A stretch of 39,242 bases of DNA, taken from IMG/VR virus record IMGVR_UViG_2734482547_000015. One strand, 5' to 3'. This document shows, piece by piece, positions 388 through 5,460 of the stretch. Both the position numbers and the translations under genes were made by a program. The stretch is from a virus. Its lineage: Duplodnaviria; Heunggongvirae; Uroviricota; Caudoviricetes. The notes beneath the pieces were generated by a model. The model was given only the letters and a program-made list of their open reading frames with translations. It had not been told where the DNA came from and searched no databases. Every line of letters begins with the position of its first letter. Within the stretch, counting starts at the first letter, position 1.

Positions 388-1125
388 TCATTCACTCTCT
401 TTCAAACCAGTTTTAACTGTTTGGGGTTTTGGGTAAGGCTGGACTTTGAATAGCTTTATGTTGAGGCGTTTTCTGGCCCTCTTGTTCAGAAACCGGATGT
501 AACGAAACTGTCGGAACTTATGAACACTGGCTCTGTCGATATTAGCCCTCAGATGTTCACCTCGTTGTCCGCCTCGTTTAATGGCATTCCTGCAAATCTC
601 GTGATACCACTCGCCATCAAGTTCATAGAATGTTGATTCATGGCTGCCTACATAATCAAAATTGCTTGCCTGATACACGACACCAAGACAGCCACAACGC
701 TCATCTGCAAACGACTGAACCCACTGTACCTGCGGATAAAGCTGTCTGATAAGTTTGAGTGCGTAACTGATGGCCCTTGATTCGGAGTTTCTCGGCATAC
801 AGTCATGCAGCCATAACCGGTTAAGCTCCATATATTCGCGGTTCTGCGTACCGGTTACGACGCGCGCTCCACTGTTTGGATTAAGGGCATAACCCCATTG
901 CATTACGCCAACCAGCTCTCGTTCTGAAAATATACCCAGATGAAGGTAGGAGTTATTTACGAAACGGTGGCTGTAATGTTTATTGACGATGACCAGTCGG
1001 GCCAGCCAGCAACTTATTGTCTCAACCCGTAACTCACGGGAGCCATAACCGACGATATTGTCGTTATAGAGAATAAGTTCAGGCGTGCTGATGATACGGG
1101 ATGTAACTTGTTTTCTGTTCCCCAC
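388..1125 (-). CDS. mom: Mom-like DNA modification protein (245 aa), apparent GTG start preceded by AGGAA
   Basis: Size and position (last gene before prophage right end, overlapping upstream com by 47 nt) match Mu mom; first codon at 1125 reads GTG with Shine-Dalgarno AGGAA about 9 nt upstream. Confidence 0.7.
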
Positions 1126-1279
1126 GACAGGATTTCCTTGTGTATGTGGGGTGCTCTGTGGCGCTCGGAGATGTGATTTGATTGAGGGTTTTACAGCGCG
1201 GACATTTTACTTCCAGATAACTGAAACTGGCCCGTGCCAGTAACTTGTTGCAGTGTCGGCACCGTATGTTTCGATACAT
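1079..1279 (-). CDS. com: Com-like zinc-finger translational activator of mom (66 aa)
   Basis: [10 protein letters not shown]...[11 protein letters not shown] resembles Mu Com (C4 zinc finger); AGGAGG upstream of ATG; 3' end overlaps mom start as in Mu. Confidence 0.8.
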
Positions 1280-1538: not shown

Positions 1539-1578
1539 ACATAAAAGGGAAACCCAGCATAGCTGGAACTATGCTGGG
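1539..1578 (-). terminator. Intrinsic terminator (10-bp perfect stem CCCAGCATAG/CTATGCTGGG, 6-nt loop, U-rich tail on minus strand)
   Basis: Hairpin at ~1553-1578; minus-strand downstream sequence TTTCCCTTTTATG; would terminate transcripts coming from the cargo genes before the mom promoter. Confidence 0.55.
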
Positions 1579-1685
1579 TCAATCTGTAAAAACTTGCATC
1601 AATGCTTTACTTCGAGCTCGTGGCGTATCCTATGATATTCCCCGGTCTCCTGTAAAGCAGAGATATATCTGTTCAGGCAGGAAAA

Positions 1686-1892
1686 ATGGATAAACTAACC
1701 ACAGACCCAAAGTTACAGGCTGCGCGAATTGCAGCTGATATTACAATTGCAGCAATGACATCCACCAGGGGTAACTTTACCTCTTTTCATACAGCAGGTG
1801 ATTCATCCGCTATGCAGTTATGGAACGCGTGCTTTTCTGATGTAATTCGTGCAATCAGCGAGTCAGTTGACCTTCGCGAACCGCAAAAATAG
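1686..1892 (+). CDS. Hypothetical small protein (68 aa) in AT-rich region; convergent with and overlapping 3' end of 1855..2055
   Basis: ATG preceded by CAGGCAGGAAAA (AGGA Shine-Dalgarno); no recognisable motif. Confidence 0.3.
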   Translation: MDKLTTDPKLQAARIAADITIAAMTSTRGNFTSFHTAGDSSAMQLWNACFSDVIRAISESVDLREPQK

Positions 1893-2055
1893 CGCATCTT
1901 GGGGTACACAGGATCTGCATAGCTATCCACATTGCGGTGGCGAAGTTTCGATCCTGTAATGTATCTTCATCAAGTCCTGAACGTAGCGCATTGATAATTT
2001 CCGCGCTTAATCTTTCTAGGCCTTTGGTATCAGGTTGCTTTTTATTCTTGTCCAT
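1855..2055 (-). CDS. Hypothetical small protein (66 aa, start at internal ATG of track ORF)
   Basis: ATG at 2055 preceded by AGAGGA ~9 nt upstream; MDKNKKQPDTKGLERLSAEIINAL...; no recognisable family. Confidence 0.5.
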   Translation of the reverse strand: MDKNKKQPDTKGLERLSAEIINALRSGLDEDTLQDRNFATAMWIAMQILCTPRCAIFAVREGQLTR

Positions 2056-2130
2056 GATTATTGTCCTCTGATTGGTATATAAAGCGCCCATGAAAATAAA
2101 ACCGACAGGAGAAACTGCCGGTTTGTATTG

Positions 2131-2385
2131 TTACATCATGGTGCTGTCAGTTCCGGGCTGAGCCGGGTCTGGTTGCTCTGGCTGCGCGTCGGTTTTCGGC
2201 TCATTATCAGCATCACTGGCCGCAACTGCTGGCCCAATAAGTTTTGCCAGCACTTCATCAACGTAAGTGTCGATTTGTGCCTCAAAATCCTTGCGGACCT
2301 GCGCTTTCAGCAACTTATTTACTTCACCGGAATACAGTGCCTGTTTTACCAGGTCTTCAGTGACGGTGCCTTTAATTTCTGGCAT
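2131..2385 (-). CDS. Hypothetical small protein (84 aa) with Pro/Glu/Asp/Gln-rich acidic C-terminal tail
   Basis: Near-perfect Shine-Dalgarno AAGGAGGA 6 nt upstream of ATG; C-terminus ...SDADNEPKTDAQPEQPDPAQPGTDSTMM. Confidence 0.65.
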   Translation of the reverse strand: MPEIKGTVTEDLVKQALYSGEVNKLLKAQVRKDFEAQIDTYVDEVLAKLIGPAVAASDADNEPKTDAQPEQPDPAQPGTDSTMM

Positions 2386-2420
2386 GTATATCCTCCTTAT
2401 GCGGGAATAAAGCCCTGCAA

Positions 2421-2603
2421 TCAGGGCTGGGTCGGGTCTTTTGGGAGCGGAGTTACCTGCGCTGTTTTACTGAGTTTTTCAGCTGCTGCGTCCTCAATTT
2501 TGCGGCGAACATAATTTCTGATGGCCTTATAACCACCACTCACCAGATATAACGCACATACTGCCGTGCAGAAATACAATAAAATAAGCTGTAAAAATGT
2601 CAT
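2421..2603 (-). CDS. Hypothetical small membrane protein (61 aa, single N-terminal TM helix)
   Basis: GGGAGGGA Shine-Dalgarno directly upstream of ATG at 2603; hydrophobic segment FLQLILLYFCTAVCALYLV followed by charged tail. Confidence 0.6.
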   Translation of the reverse strand: MTFLQLILLYFCTAVCALYLVSGGYKAIRNYVRRKIEDAAAEKLSKTAQVTPLPKDPTQP

Positions 2604-2699
2604 TATCCCTCCCAATTATTGACATGGTGTTGACACCGGTAATATCTGTTAGGTAAAAAGGTGCACTGCATTTTTTGCTTTGGATATAACGATCTTTTT

Positions 2700-2742
2700 G
2701 CCGCCGGTTTCTTGTTTTCCCTTACCGGCGGCATTTTTTTAT
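2700..2742 (+). terminator. Intrinsic terminator-like hairpin on plus strand (GCCGCCGGT ... ACCGGCGGC followed by ATTTTTTTAT)
   Basis: 9-bp GC-rich stem with ~15-nt loop followed by T-run on plus strand; on minus strand the hairpin is followed by A-rich sequence, so it is not a canonical terminator for the esterase gene. Confidence 0.45.
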
Positions 2743-2747
2743 CCTGC

Positions 2748-4802
2748 TTACGCGTTATTCACTTCCACCACGATACTGTCAATCAGTACCGGGTAAGTCG
2801 CATTTTTAGTGATATCGGTCACGCGCAACTTGTCTGCCGTAAACGTGCCGACCGGAGACTGCGACAGCATGAATGGTGTCCCGTCCTTACCATCAATGAC
2901 CGGCGTCACCTCAATACTGTTGTTACCGGCAAAACGGAAGCCCAGCGTATGCCATTCGTTATTAAATGCGCCGAATGACCCCAGCTTCGTGTTCTGCGCC
3001 GTGTTTCCTTTGTGATACATCACGTTAAGGTCTGTGGCATCGCTCTGTACGTAGAACGATGCCAGCAGGTTATGACCGGCATTTCCTTCCAGAGTAACCC
3101 CTTGCGGCAGGGCAGAAACCGGCCAGTACAGCGCCAGTGCGTACTGATTAGCCGTAAGCGCGCCATCGAGTTTAAAACGACAACTGACAAGACCACCTTT
3201 ACCCAGCAGGTCCGCACCATTACCAGCATCATGCTCAAGGTACCAGGGGGCTCTTCCTGTTTCCTTGGTCAGTTTCATTGCCTTACCCCCGCTGGCTCCG
3301 GCATCATCCACGATTTGAGCCTTGCCACCTCCGGCAGCCCAACCCTGTGGTGTCAACCGTCCTTCAGACTCAGATGCCCGGTAAGCAAATAGCGTACTCA
3401 TCGTCGTGGTGTCTGCGGGTGGCGTGGACGGTTTTGATGGTGTATCAGGTGACGGCTTCTCATCCGGTGGTGTCACGGTCTGCCCGCGCATCAGTTCAGC
3501 CGTGCGCCCTGCATGGAGCATAATAGCTGAGGCCAGACGGTCTGAAATGACGCCCCTGCGTGCCCATGAGCTGAAATGGCTGTCACGCTGTGTCGAAACA
3601 AAACTGCCCTGGGTTCGGGATGCTGCACCGTAATACCCGACAGCCACAATATCCGGGTCTTCCGCCGGAGCATTCGTTGGCGTGCTCTGTCCATTCTCAT
3701 CCGTCAGGAACGGTACAAAGAAAATTTTCTGTGCTTCCTTGCCTTTGTAGCCACCGTATACTGCCTCATATTTATCGGTGCCAGCGTTTTTCCAGTAATA
3801 CGTGGTATCACCGCAAATCCACGGCACCGTGGTGGCATTTCCACTCACGCACTGCGCAGCAAGCGGAGCCAGGTCAGTTCTGAACTGCTGAACCATGGCC
3901 GTGAATAAACTATTATGCTGCTGGCTTCCTGAGGCAAGGTCTGCCTCTCCCTGCATCCAGACCACAGCCAGAAGTTTGTTTTTCGGGTTTTTCGCCAGCG
4001 CGACTTTGGTGCGGCTTACCAGGTCCTGATACAGAGGTTTACCGGCCCCCCAGCGTGAAGAATCAGCGGAAGCACCGCTGGCCTCACTGAATGAGCCGTC
4101 GGCTCCAGTGGTGAATGCTGACCCGCCACGACAACAGGGCACCAGAAGTATCCCGGCATTCTGTGGGATATAGGGAAGCAGTTTTTTGGCAATATGCAAC
4201 CCCTGACCGACAGTCCCGTACTGGCCTTTTGCCAGATCAGCTTTCGGGTGGTTTATCCCGCTCATATCCTGAACATCATGCAGGCAGTGGTCTGCCGGAA
4301 TGATGTCGTTGTATGTACACGACGTACCGTTGGGCGTTACCGTACTGCGGCGTGCCAGTTGCTTAATGCGTGGGTCCGGGCGGTCAAACGAATCCGGTAA
4401 CGGCAGCCCCTCGCCGTAGGCCATGCCATTTGACTGACCCGCGAGAATGACAACAAAGTAATATTCCGGCTCTGAACTGCTGCCATTCGTGCTACCGGAA
4501 GGCCCGGCGTTATCCGGTGCATTCCAGTCGGAGGGCGTGAGCGTTCCGGCCACGTCAGATGTGATTGGAATGATGCCAGTCACGCCTGAACTGGTGATTT
4601 CTGCACTGGGATTACCGGATACCGGCATTACCCATAATGGCTCTTTCGTGCTGAAGCGGATCACGCAGTCTGCGAAAGTGATCCCCCCTTTATTACCCGA
4701 AGGGCGGAAAGGGCTTTCAATAAATGCCACCGTGCCACCGGCAACCTTGACTGAAAACTCTCCGGGCATGGCGGAGAGCATTTTCCACTTGGAGTCTGAC
4801 AT
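2748..4802 (-). CDS. SASA-family (sialate O-acetylesterase-like, SGNH-type) carbohydrate esterase domain protein, 684 aa, with N-terminal domain and C-terminal beta-sandwich-like region
   Basis: Central motifs YFVVILAGQSNGMAYGEG and VVWMQGEADL typical of the SASA esterase family; resembles prophage NanS-p-type esterases; sits at the position that holds only com-mom in Mu. Confidence 0.8.
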   Translation of the reverse strand: MSDSKWKMLSAMPGEFSVKVAGGTVAFIESPFRPSGNKGGITFADCVIRFSTKEPLWVMPVSGNPSAEITSSGVTGIIPITSDVAGTLTPSDWNAPDNAGPSGSTNGSSSEPEYYFVVILAGQSNGMAYGEGLPLPDSFDRPDPRIKQLARRSTVTPNGTSCTYNDIIPADHCLHDVQDMSGINHPKADLAKGQYGTVGQGLHIAKKLLPYIPQNAGILLVPCCRGGSAFTTGADGSFSEASGASADSSRWGAGKPLYQDLVSRTKVALAKNPKNKLLAVVWMQGEADLASGSQQHNSLFTAMVQQFRTDLAPLAAQCVSGNATTVPWICGDTTYYWKNAGTDKYEAVYGGYKGKEAQKIFFVPFLTDENGQSTPTNAPAEDPDIVAVGYYGAASRTQGSFVSTQRDSHFSSWARRGVISDRLASAIMLHAGRTAELMRGQTVTPPDEKPSPDTPSKPSTPPADTTTMSTLFAYRASESEGRLTPQGWAAGGGKAQIVDDAGASGGKAMKLTKETGRAPWYLEHDAGNGADLLGKGGLVSCRFKLDGALTANQYALALYWPVSALPQGVTLEGNAGHNLLASFYVQSDATDLNVMYHKGNTAQNTKLGSFGAFNNEWHTLGFRFAGNNSIEVTPVIDGKDGTPFMLSQSPVGTFTADKLRVTDITKNATYPVLIDSIVVEVNNA

Positions 4803-4887: not shown

Positions 4888-5460
4888 TCACGGTACTTTT
4901 GGTGACGGAGCTGGTGAGGCAGGAAAATAACGATAAAGAGTGGAAAGGCCAATATCAAATATCAGTGCGATTTGTTTACGGGACTCGCCATTAGCCAGCA
5001 AACGGGCGATTTGCTCCCGCTCTTTCTCTGTCAGTTTCTGAGGTCTGCCGCCATGACGCCCCTGAGCACGGGCAGCAGCAAGACCCGCGCGTGTACGTTC
5101 AATAATGAGTTCCCGCTCCATTTCCGCCAGCGCGCCCATTATATGGAAAAAGAAACGTCCCATGGGAGTGGATGTATCAATATTGTCCGTAATGCTGCGG
5201 AAGTTAACGCCGCGTTGCCGGAGTTCTTCTGTTAAAAGGACAAGGTGCTGCATACTGCGTCCAAGGCGATCCAGTTTCCAGACCAGCAGGGTATCCCCTG
5301 GCCGGAGTCGCTTTAATGCGCGTTTAAGTCCGGGACGCTCCCTTGTCTTACCGCTTATTCTGTCTTCGAAAAACAGCTCACATCCTGCACATTCCAGCGC
5401 ATTTCTTTGTAGCGCCGTATTCTGGTCATTTGTTGACACCCTGATATACCCAATCAGCAT
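4888..5460 (-). CDS. gin: Serine recombinase, Gin/Hin/Cin-family DNA invertase (190 aa)
   Basis: N-terminal catalytic region MLIGYIRVSTNDQ with resolvase-like fold and C-terminal HTH (GLSTLYRYF); immediately adjacent to the invertible segment; AAGGAAA Shine-Dalgarno and TATAAT upstream. Confidence 0.9.
   Translation of the reverse strand: MLIGYIRVSTNDQNTALQRNALECAGCELFFEDRISGKTRERPGLKRALKRLRPGDTLLVWKLDRLGRSMQHLVLLTEELRQRGVNFRSITDNIDTSTPMGRFFFHIMGALAEMERELIIERTRAGLAAARAQGRHGGRPQKLTEKEREQIARLLANGESRKQIALIFDIGLSTLYRYFPASPAPSPKVP

Follow-up and report, generated by a model that had tools for sequence, protein, structure and literature searches.

The stretch of DNA analyzed here (IMG/VR virus record IMGVR_UViG_2734482547_000015, 39,242 nucleotides, hereafter the window) is a Mu-like prophage presented from its right end inward, in which three small minus-strand genes lie between a sialate O-acetylesterase gene and com-mom. 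Our best explanation of this interval is that two unrelated accessory units sit in one Mu-like prophage, and we place the probability of that reading, including the role proposed below for the first unit, at roughly 0.6; the anatomy of the region and the family assignments we regard as close to certain. The first, Unit A (~2099-4802, minus strand), is by gene content and order a mobile late-region module of lambdoid/Shiga-toxin (Stx) phages that has come to lie downstream of gin, and in it the holin of lambdoid phages is, as predicted from folding, replaced by a terminator. The second, Unit B (1686-2055), is on its distribution a separate and rare cassette of two convergent small genes, ORF3 and ORF68p, and it appears from shared motifs and synteny to have been copied from the terminase-adjacent region of other Mu-like phages. 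The first-pass annotation had read the three minus-strand genes as one operon for which the esterase was a mere boundary; the data below divide that operon in two and, by synteny, make the esterase the true partner of the first two genes.

A Lambdoid Esterase Module in a Mu-Like Prophage

At the head of Unit A stands a NanS-p-type sialate O-acetylesterase gene (2748-4802, minus strand) with matches to Pfam SASA and DUF6645 and to phrog_143. Following it on the same strand, gene 1 (2421-2603) encodes a 60-residue DUF1378 family protein, with its ATG at 2603, its stop at 2421 and the ribosome-binding site GGGAGGG 4 nucleotides (nt) 5' of the ATG; the protein covers profile positions 1-58 of 59 in PF07125 (E 9e-32, 109.4 bits against a gathering cut-off of 25) and also matches phrog_494 (E 1e-32). 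Gene 2 (2131-2385, minus strand), whose ribosome-binding site AAGGAGGA lies 5 nt 5' of the ATG, encodes an 84-residue DUF826 protein, residues 1-57 of which align to profile positions 1-58 of the 75 in PF05696 (E 6e-16, 58.7 bits, cut-off 25), with a full-length match to phrog_311 (E 5e-28). Near-identical open reading frames (ORFs; 96-98% amino acid identity) carry the names DUF1378 and DUF826 in RefSeq. The profile searches therefore place genes 1 and 2 in families, and the first-pass view that none of the three small proteins belongs to a recognizable one survives for gene 3 only.

The same arrangement is found in phage 933W, where L0105 (NanS-p), DUF1378, DUF826 and holin S follow one another and the two small genes are masked by a mis-called ORF, L0106; in a published survey of Stx2a phages, ORFs of the DUF826 and DUF1378 families are likewise noted in the interval from nanS-p to S. 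Order, orientation and spacing agree between the 933W nanS-p-S segment and the window, as does a spacer of ~150 nt with a terminator on the opposite strand, whereas the surroundings differ: here the module resides in a Mu-like phage, with gin rather than stx or Q before it and with a terminator and com-mom in place of holin and endolysin behind it.

For a wider sample, 80 IMG/VR loci were gathered through DUF1378; statements of distribution in this study cover IMG/VR data and E. coli genomes. The esterase ends ~150 nt upstream of DUF1378 in all 76 loci in which this could be tested, and DUF826 lies 23-77 nt downstream of DUF1378 in 77 of 77 testable loci. Fifty-one of the 80 are lambdoid, with a 933W-type holin as the next gene, and 27 are Mu-like, with gin, com or mom nearby, leaving one hybrid and one unclassified locus. 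Gene content is constant while alleles are reshuffled, as in a lambdoid locus (L035) whose esterase, DUF1378 and DUF826 are 90%, 70% and 56% identical to those of the window. Between Mu-type and 933W copies, amino acid identity is 51-53% for DUF1378 and 42% for DUF826, with intact ORFs and ratios of nonsynonymous to synonymous substitution rates (dN/dS) of 0.08-0.33. The Mu-type genes are too far from the lambdoid ones for DNA searches or single-sequence tblastn, so that profiles and 933W queries were required; megablast and blastn of the region against a phage collection returned two Mu-like inserts only, and scans of genome contigs for DUF1378 and for ORF3 gave zero confirmed loci. Among 5426 complete E. 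coli genomes, lambdoid-type DUF1378/DUF826 occur in 1052, with up to seven copies each, and Mu-type genes 1 and 2 in ~460.

One locus of the sample combines the two types. In IMGVR_UViG_2617270951_000022 (L070, 96-3734), gin and a Mu-type esterase 99% identical to that of the window are joined to lambdoid-type DUF1378, DUF826 and holin S, all on a single contig. Either a Mu-like and a lambdoid phage truly recombined there at their homologous esterase genes, or the contig is a chimera of the assembly.

Directly after the DUF826 stop codon, the minus strand carries an intrinsic-terminator-like hairpin and U-run (2099-2124), in which a 10-pair stem is followed by TTTTATTTT. The folding energy of this hairpin (2124-2099) is -14 kcal/mol (z = -3.45), a value equalled by none of 200 shuffles, and the esterase/DUF1378/DUF826 transcript probably has its 3' end at this element. 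It separates gene 2 from gene 3, and gene 3 is present in 17 of the 5426 genomes against the ~460 that hold genes 1 and 2, which argues against a single three-gene operon. The three ORFs themselves lie where the first-pass annotation put them, with ribosome-binding sites as it described. In comparisons with diverged copies, which differ by 5-40% in DNA and in which synonymous changes predominate, dN/dS ranges from 0.14 to 0.30 in gene 1, from 0.08 to 0.18 in gene 2 and from 0.06 to 0.11 in ORF3. By this substitution pattern all three are real genes under purifying selection and more than chance ORFs, and genes 1 and 2 in addition score far above the Pfam cut-offs.

The esterase shows where the module has been altered. 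Its residues 94-683 are 66% identical to residues 57-640 of 933W L0105 (BLASTP), and its residues 1-93 (4524-4802, minus strand) match no family. SASA and DUF6645 are present and DUF1737 is absent, so that where the 933W esterase has the DUF1737 capsid-binding domain, the window esterase has an unrelated N-terminus of 93 residues. In phage phi24B, DUF1737 is the capsid-binding part of the esterase and is removed by cleavage near residue 57 (phi24B preprint, 2026), and the swap point seen here coincides with the cleavage/domain boundary published for phi24B gp84. The replaced N-terminus may fit the enzyme to a Mu-type virion. Upstream, terminator scanning and direct reading find no terminator or hairpin in the spacer between gin and the esterase, the nearest match (4745-4726) lying within the esterase ORF, so that the module may plausibly be co-transcribed, starting from gin or from a promoter close to the end of gin.

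Predicted Properties of DUF1378 and DUF826

DUF1378 begins with a hydrophobic helix (residues 3-24; Kyte-Doolittle 19-residue maximum of 2.27 at residue 3), which is followed by a basic amphipathic segment and a Pro-rich tail, and the protein has an isoelectric point (pI) of 9.3. By the positive-inside rule it is probably an inner-membrane anchor with its N-terminus out and its C-terminus in. The single transmembrane helix of the first-pass annotation is thus upheld, and the length of 61 residues given there is corrected to 60. LYFC and SGGY motifs are invariant and common to DUF1378 here and in 933W. No holin family was among the Pfam profile matches of DUF1378.

For DUF826, AlphaFold2 predicts helices at residues 10-17 and 20-50, and the predicted local distance difference test score (pLDDT) is <50 over most of the tail from residue 56. 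The acidic tail noted at first pass is confirmed; it is Pro-rich and predicted to be disordered, in a protein with a pI of 4.2, and it always ends in hydrophobic residues (TMM here, VMML in 933W). A PDB sequence search with DUF826 gave no match. Neither DUF1378 nor DUF826 matched a defense, holin, toxin or solved-structure family. Several phage genomes deposited in GenBank (PQ600365, ON416862 and PV340551) label DUF826 a "head completion protein"; we found no supporting evidence for this label and treat it as unverified pipeline text, which may propagate via annotation pipelines. The phi24B virion study makes no mention of DUF1378 or DUF826.

A Putative Small RNA Opposite the Esterase-DUF1378 Junction

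The ~145-nt spacer between the esterase and DUF1378 likely holds, on the plus strand, a small-RNA gene of the PasA/PasC type with a different seed (2630-2740). The putative gene consists of a -35 element TTGACA (2630-2635), 18 nt, a -10 element TAAAAA (2654-2659), and a terminator whose stem (2700-2708/2724-2732) is followed by U7 (2734-2740) and adjoins the esterase stop codon at 2748, giving a predicted RNA of ~75 nt (~2666-2740). The stem is GC-rich and 10 bp long, the A7 before it on the minus strand being the U7 after the hairpin on the plus strand, and the plus-strand hairpin folds with -20 kcal/mol (z = -5.2).

This architecture recurs across the module. Of 30 distinct spacer variants, taken from both Mu-like and lambdoid loci, 29 have a hairpin and U-run element, in which stem sequences vary and complementarity is kept. 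In an alignment of 31 variants that includes the validated PasA and PasC of E2348/69, every spacer has a -35-like element (TTTAC in L067) and a hairpin with U-run, and the -10 element, ~18 nt from the -35, is mostly TAAAAA-like, with an A-rich CAGAAAA in PasA/PasC. The PasC terminator in the E2348/69 sequence is the same hairpin, abutting the esterase stop codon in an identical arrangement. According to Table S6 of Pearl Mizrahi et al. (PMC8550237), the gene for the Hfq-dependent PasA lies on the opposite strand, with the esterase on one side and the following gene on the other ("> < >"), and RNA interaction by ligation and sequencing (RIL-seq) there shows the esterase mRNA 3' end among the partners of PasA. 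The window element resembles PasA/PasC (EcOnc51/52, of enteropathogenic and enterohaemorrhagic E. coli, EPEC/EHEC) in lying on the opposite strand directly downstream of the esterase stop, in its TTGAC-type -35, in its hairpin and U7, and in a length of ~75-85 nt. It differs from them in a seed-bearing 5' body that cannot be aligned and in having DUF1378 rather than a holin as the next gene.

A distance of 17 nt separates the putative small-RNA promoter from the ribosome-binding site of DUF1378, and the predicted RNA would be fully complementary to any esterase-DUF1378 read-through transcript. Being complementary to this junction, the RNA could uncouple the expression of the two genes.

An identification of the spacer as Esr41 was rejected, since its score of 22 bits falls well short of the gathering score (102) and the likeness is to the terminator only; a genuine Esr41 is found on SpLE1, and Esr41 reaches threshold in no lambdoid locus. 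Where DUF1378 and DUF826 are missing, in E2348/69 PP2 (L103, 2560-2600) and in L104, a GGGGAGG ribosome-binding site, a 9-codon mini-ORF and a terminator lie between the PasA/PasC promoter and the holin, and this arrangement could be what a deletion left behind or else an alternative leader.

A Rare Convergent Cassette before com

Gene 3 (ORF3; 1855-2055, minus strand) encodes a predicted soluble helical protein of 66 residues; it starts at 2055, with AGAGGA 8 nt 5' of the ATG. No curated family was found for it in Pfam, PHROG, PADLOC or NCBIfam, tblastn against phages gave no match, and only five near-identical clusters were recovered among 5.8 billion proteins. Three remote homologues were detected by an exhaustive profile-free search at borderline E values of 1e-4 to 8e-4 (L086-L088), and four more (L096-L099) came from IMG/VR. 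The proteins of this family are ~65 residues long and share the motif NF..AMW[IL]AMQ.[IL]C.P in an alignment with 13 invariant columns. The remote homologues lie between DUF1804/gp27-like and large terminase genes, and the L086-L088 loci are Mu-like, with GemA, Mor, DUF1804, Portal_Mu and Mu F present. On this alignment and synteny, ORF3 is a tiny family restricted to Mu-like phages and stands outside the esterase module. AlphaFold2 models ORF3 as four helices (pLDDT 82); a fold search of the model against PDB and BFVD returned noise only (E >1), and a PDB sequence search with the ORF3 profile gave no match. A longer, 78-residue form starting at the ATG at 2091 is unlikely, as that start has no ribosome-binding site and lies inside the terminator U-run, and the 12 extra residues differ at three positions between close copies.

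The partner of ORF3 was overlooked at first pass. ORF68p (68 residues; 1686-1892, plus strand), which has no annotation in the closest RefSeq record (L001), is preceded by AGGA 4 nt 5' of its ATG and overlaps, at its start, the stop codon of the ORF before it. ORF68p and ORF3 are convergent, tail to tail, with 3' ends that overlap by 38 nt. The dN/dS of ORF68p is 0.10-0.36 and the frame is intact in diverged copies. Its N-terminus is homologous (E 4e-6) to ORFs of two loci with remote ORF3 homologues, L086 and L097 (LTTDQRIQVARIAADL vs LTTDPKLQAARIAADI), in both of which the ORF68p homologue likewise converges on the ORF3 homologue and overlaps it, by 26-29 nt. An ORF3 homologue stands without an ORF68p partner in L088, L096, L098 and L099. 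In L087 (5259-6116), the gene that converges on the ORF3 homologue encodes a 285-residue DUF4145 protein, which suggests that the site behind ORF3-like genes generally accepts inserted cargo of opposite orientation.

Further toward com lies a third plus-strand feature, a truncated phrog_26524 ORF of 99 residues (1394-1693; E 1e-43, profile positions 1-90 of 135). The corresponding ORF has 137 residues in other Mu-like prophages, with the full-length form in L018, and the NCBI Prokaryotic Genome Annotation Pipeline (PGAP) calls the 1394-1693 ORF a pseudogene without its C-terminus. The first-pass count of three genes between the esterase and com-mom was correct for the minus strand and had missed the two plus-strand ORFs and the small-RNA gene.

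Comparison across related Mu-like prophages shows that the DUF826-com slot is hypervariable, with at least three alternative contents. One type of slot holds the 137-residue phrog_26524 ORF with a 64-residue zinc-ribbon ORF on the opposite strand, and another an ORF of 86-97 residues on the opposite strand; that of the window is a 467-bp replacement, which cuts the phrog_26524 ORF short and brings in gene 3. In this respect the region resembles the right-end moron slots of Mu-like phages, whose content is variable and horizontally exchanged and one of which, in a relative, has a C5 cytosine methyltransferase in place of mom. It is unlike them in that the relatives of ORF3 and ORF68p in other Mu-like phages are neighbors of the terminase genes and do not lie at right ends.

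All three slot versions include ORFs that point away from the com-mom control region, and a divergent promoter within the mom regulatory region may drive these ORFs. In phage Mu, a second promoter, momP2, is located there. A hairpin with a 13-pair stem and a U-rich tail (1551-1580, minus strand; -21.5 kcal/mol, z = -6.2) stands upstream of the mom control region, within the truncated plus-strand ORF and ~275 nt downstream of ORF3, and it probably shields the mom promoter from upstream minus-strand transcription.

Possible Roles of the DUF1378/DUF826 Pair

In the mechanism that we propose for Unit A, the esterase, DUF1378 and DUF826 would be co-transcribed, the sense direction having no predicted terminator after gin or after the esterase. 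DUF1378 would enter the inner membrane and leave its basic C-terminal helix in the cytoplasm, where the acidic, helical DUF826 would be its partner; we infer that the two act as an inner-membrane pair because they are always adjacent, carry opposite charges and have predicted membrane and cytoplasmic locations. The pair would act at the membrane in the lytic phase, as an optional accessory. In lambdoid phages, nanS-p is up by 1-2.4 logs under mitomycin C, and DUF1378/DUF826 lie in a Q-dependent late operon, between a cytoplasmic esterase that requires exit and the lysis genes. Our best guess, a tentative one drawn from composition and position only, is that the pair modulates envelope permeabilization or the release of the esterase, which lacks a signal peptide. 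It would be bolder, and in our judgment a long shot, to suppose that the esterase, small RNA, DUF1378 and DUF826 form one device controlling the exit of esterase or phage, in which the small RNA would set the esterase-to-pair ratio, and that ORF3/ORF68p is separately a new miniature antisense-coupled system of Mu-like phages.

Several observations weigh against the two-unit reading or the role attached to it. The linkage of the module was seen in one direction only, from DUF1378-based sampling. Prophages of the EPEC strain E2348/69 carry the esterase, PasA/PasC and holin without DUF1378/DUF826, which makes the pair optional and needed by neither esterase nor holin, and some loci (e.g., L045) retain DUF1378 beside an esterase that has no catalytic domain. 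Promoter-like matches in the region are no commoner than in shuffled sequence. No structural match or experiment gives DUF1378 or DUF826 an activity; the endolysin of the Mu-like prophage (Phage_lysozyme family, 28448-28948) lies ~25 kb from the pair, and a scan of ten ORFs in the prophage lysis-gene region found no holin family. For the small RNA, the body does not clearly resemble that of PasA or PasC in the aligned spacer sequences, and an Rfam search returned no family at threshold. For Unit B, the homology of ORF68p depends on synteny and on a match of 18 residues, and in one E. coli lineage ORF68p is cut short by a stop codon, leaving a 45-residue remnant that PGAP calls, with ORF3 intact.

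A natural fusion of DUF826 and esterase domains in L045-type loci was also considered and was ruled out, the pieces being in different frames.

A more specific role, which we think unlikely, is that of a lysis-timing accessory, in which a holin/antiholin-like DUF1378 and the cytoplasmic DUF826 would tune membrane depolarization and thereby the release of the signal-anchor-release (SAR)-type endolysins predicted for both phage types. In 51 of 51 lambdoid loci the pair is directly upstream of a 933W/P21-type pinholin S, in the late operon, and the Mu-like prophage has an endolysin with no holin family matched nearby. DUF1378 is small, with one transmembrane helix, a charged, basic C-terminal tail and a small cytoplasmic partner, and is holin-adjacent in lambdoid phages, features that recall class III holins and T4 RI/RIII-type regulators. 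Unlike holins and antiholins, however, DUF1378 has no sequence or profile similarity to such proteins and matches no holin Pfam family, and the Mu-like pair lies far from the lysis genes yet is kept under purifying selection; moreover, the pair is missing from the E2348/69 prophages, although these have the same holin at 91.5% identity.

It is likewise improbable that DUF1378 and DUF826 are passive hitch-hikers, functionally unlinked to the esterase and merely caught inside a recombining segment. The existence of the esterase without the pair, and of DUF1378 with a catalytically deleted esterase, would fit such a history, as would recombination at esterase homology, seen in the L070 hybrid and in the reshuffled alleles; against it, frames that are intact, with low dN/dS at 42-53% amino acid identity, indicate functional genes, and order and spacing stay constant despite allele shuffling.

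The first-pass annotation had favored lysogen-expressed cargo acting in conversion, superinfection exclusion or anti-defense, which we now consider quite unlikely. Small inner-membrane proteins are a frequent form of superinfection exclusion, and the strong ribosome-binding sites of the small genes, their position at a prophage end by gin and mom, the adjoining hypervariable slot and the DUF4145 protein beside the L087 ORF3 homologue all speak for cargo. The five small proteins, however, have no significant PADLOC match and no NCBIfam match at all (PbeC against DUF826 is sub-threshold, E 0.0076, 12.9 bits), DUF1378/DUF826 are tied to the esterase rather than to prophage ends, and the lambdoid copies sit in a Q-dependent late operon whose nanS-p is induced by mitomycin C, which is not a lysogen-expressed position. 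What remains of the cargo proposal is that this is accessory DNA outside the Mu core and that horizontally exchanged material fills the gin-com interval; an exclusion or anti-defense function finds no support in PADLOC or NCBIfam.

Finally, that ORF3/ORF68p is a miniature toxin-antitoxin or antisense-controlled pair, with mutual RNA-level control through the overlapping 3' ends, is very unlikely: the overlap is kept in L086 and L097 at ~35-40% protein identity and both ORFs are under purifying selection, but PADLOC and NCBIfam give no toxin-antitoxin or defense family match and the fold search no match, the partner is missing from four loci with an ORF3 homologue, and it is interrupted by a stop codon in one E. 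coli lineage.

Setting of the Locus

Outside the two units, the right end of the window begins with a host fragment of a glycoside hydrolase family 1 (GH1)-type glycosidase gene (1-294), followed by mom (388-1125, minus strand; Pfam Mom), com (1079-1279, minus strand; Pfam Zn_ribbon_Com) and the GATC-rich control region by com-mom (1280-1393). The upstream neighbor of the esterase is gin (4888-5460, minus strand), encoding a Gin-type DNA invertase (Pfam Resolvase and HTH_7), and further inward lie the tail-fiber genes, the large terminase gene, Mu Gp27, endolysin, Mor and GemA. The Mu-like identity of the prophage rests on profile matches to GemA, Mor, Gp27, Portal_Mu-type neighbors, Com and Mom. 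In phage Mu itself the interval between gin and com-mom is essentially empty. Close relatives of the prophage are integrated within a fimbrial usher gene, beside rhsC and within bcsA, and such unrelated chromosomal sites are the pattern expected from a transposing phage.

In LC727881 (L005, 4205-5257), where a Mu-like element is inserted in an Stx2c phage, the gene after com is a 350-residue ORF resembling C5 cytosine DNA methyltransferases, with a GTPCQAFS motif, and mom is absent, which looks like an exchange of the com-controlled DNA-modification gene.

Implications

As far as family assignments and synteny allow, the region is a mosaic that joins a lambdoid esterase module with a putative small RNA and a swapped virion-binding domain, a rare convergent mini-cassette and a decayed plus-strand gene. 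Most of this is ordinary phage mosaicism, and the outcome is an annotation correction rather than the discovery of a new system. The correction concerns DUF1378 and DUF826, which are among the commonest uncharacterized prophage genes of pathogenic E. coli, the lambdoid type being present in about one fifth of complete genomes, and which sit between the NanS-p esterase, linked to the use of mucin sialic acid by EHEC and to decoration of Stx-phage capsids, and the lysis genes that release Shiga toxin. That the pair stays behind the esterase even after a move into an unrelated Mu-like phage gives a testable lead to its function, in the release or processing of the esterase or in lysis.

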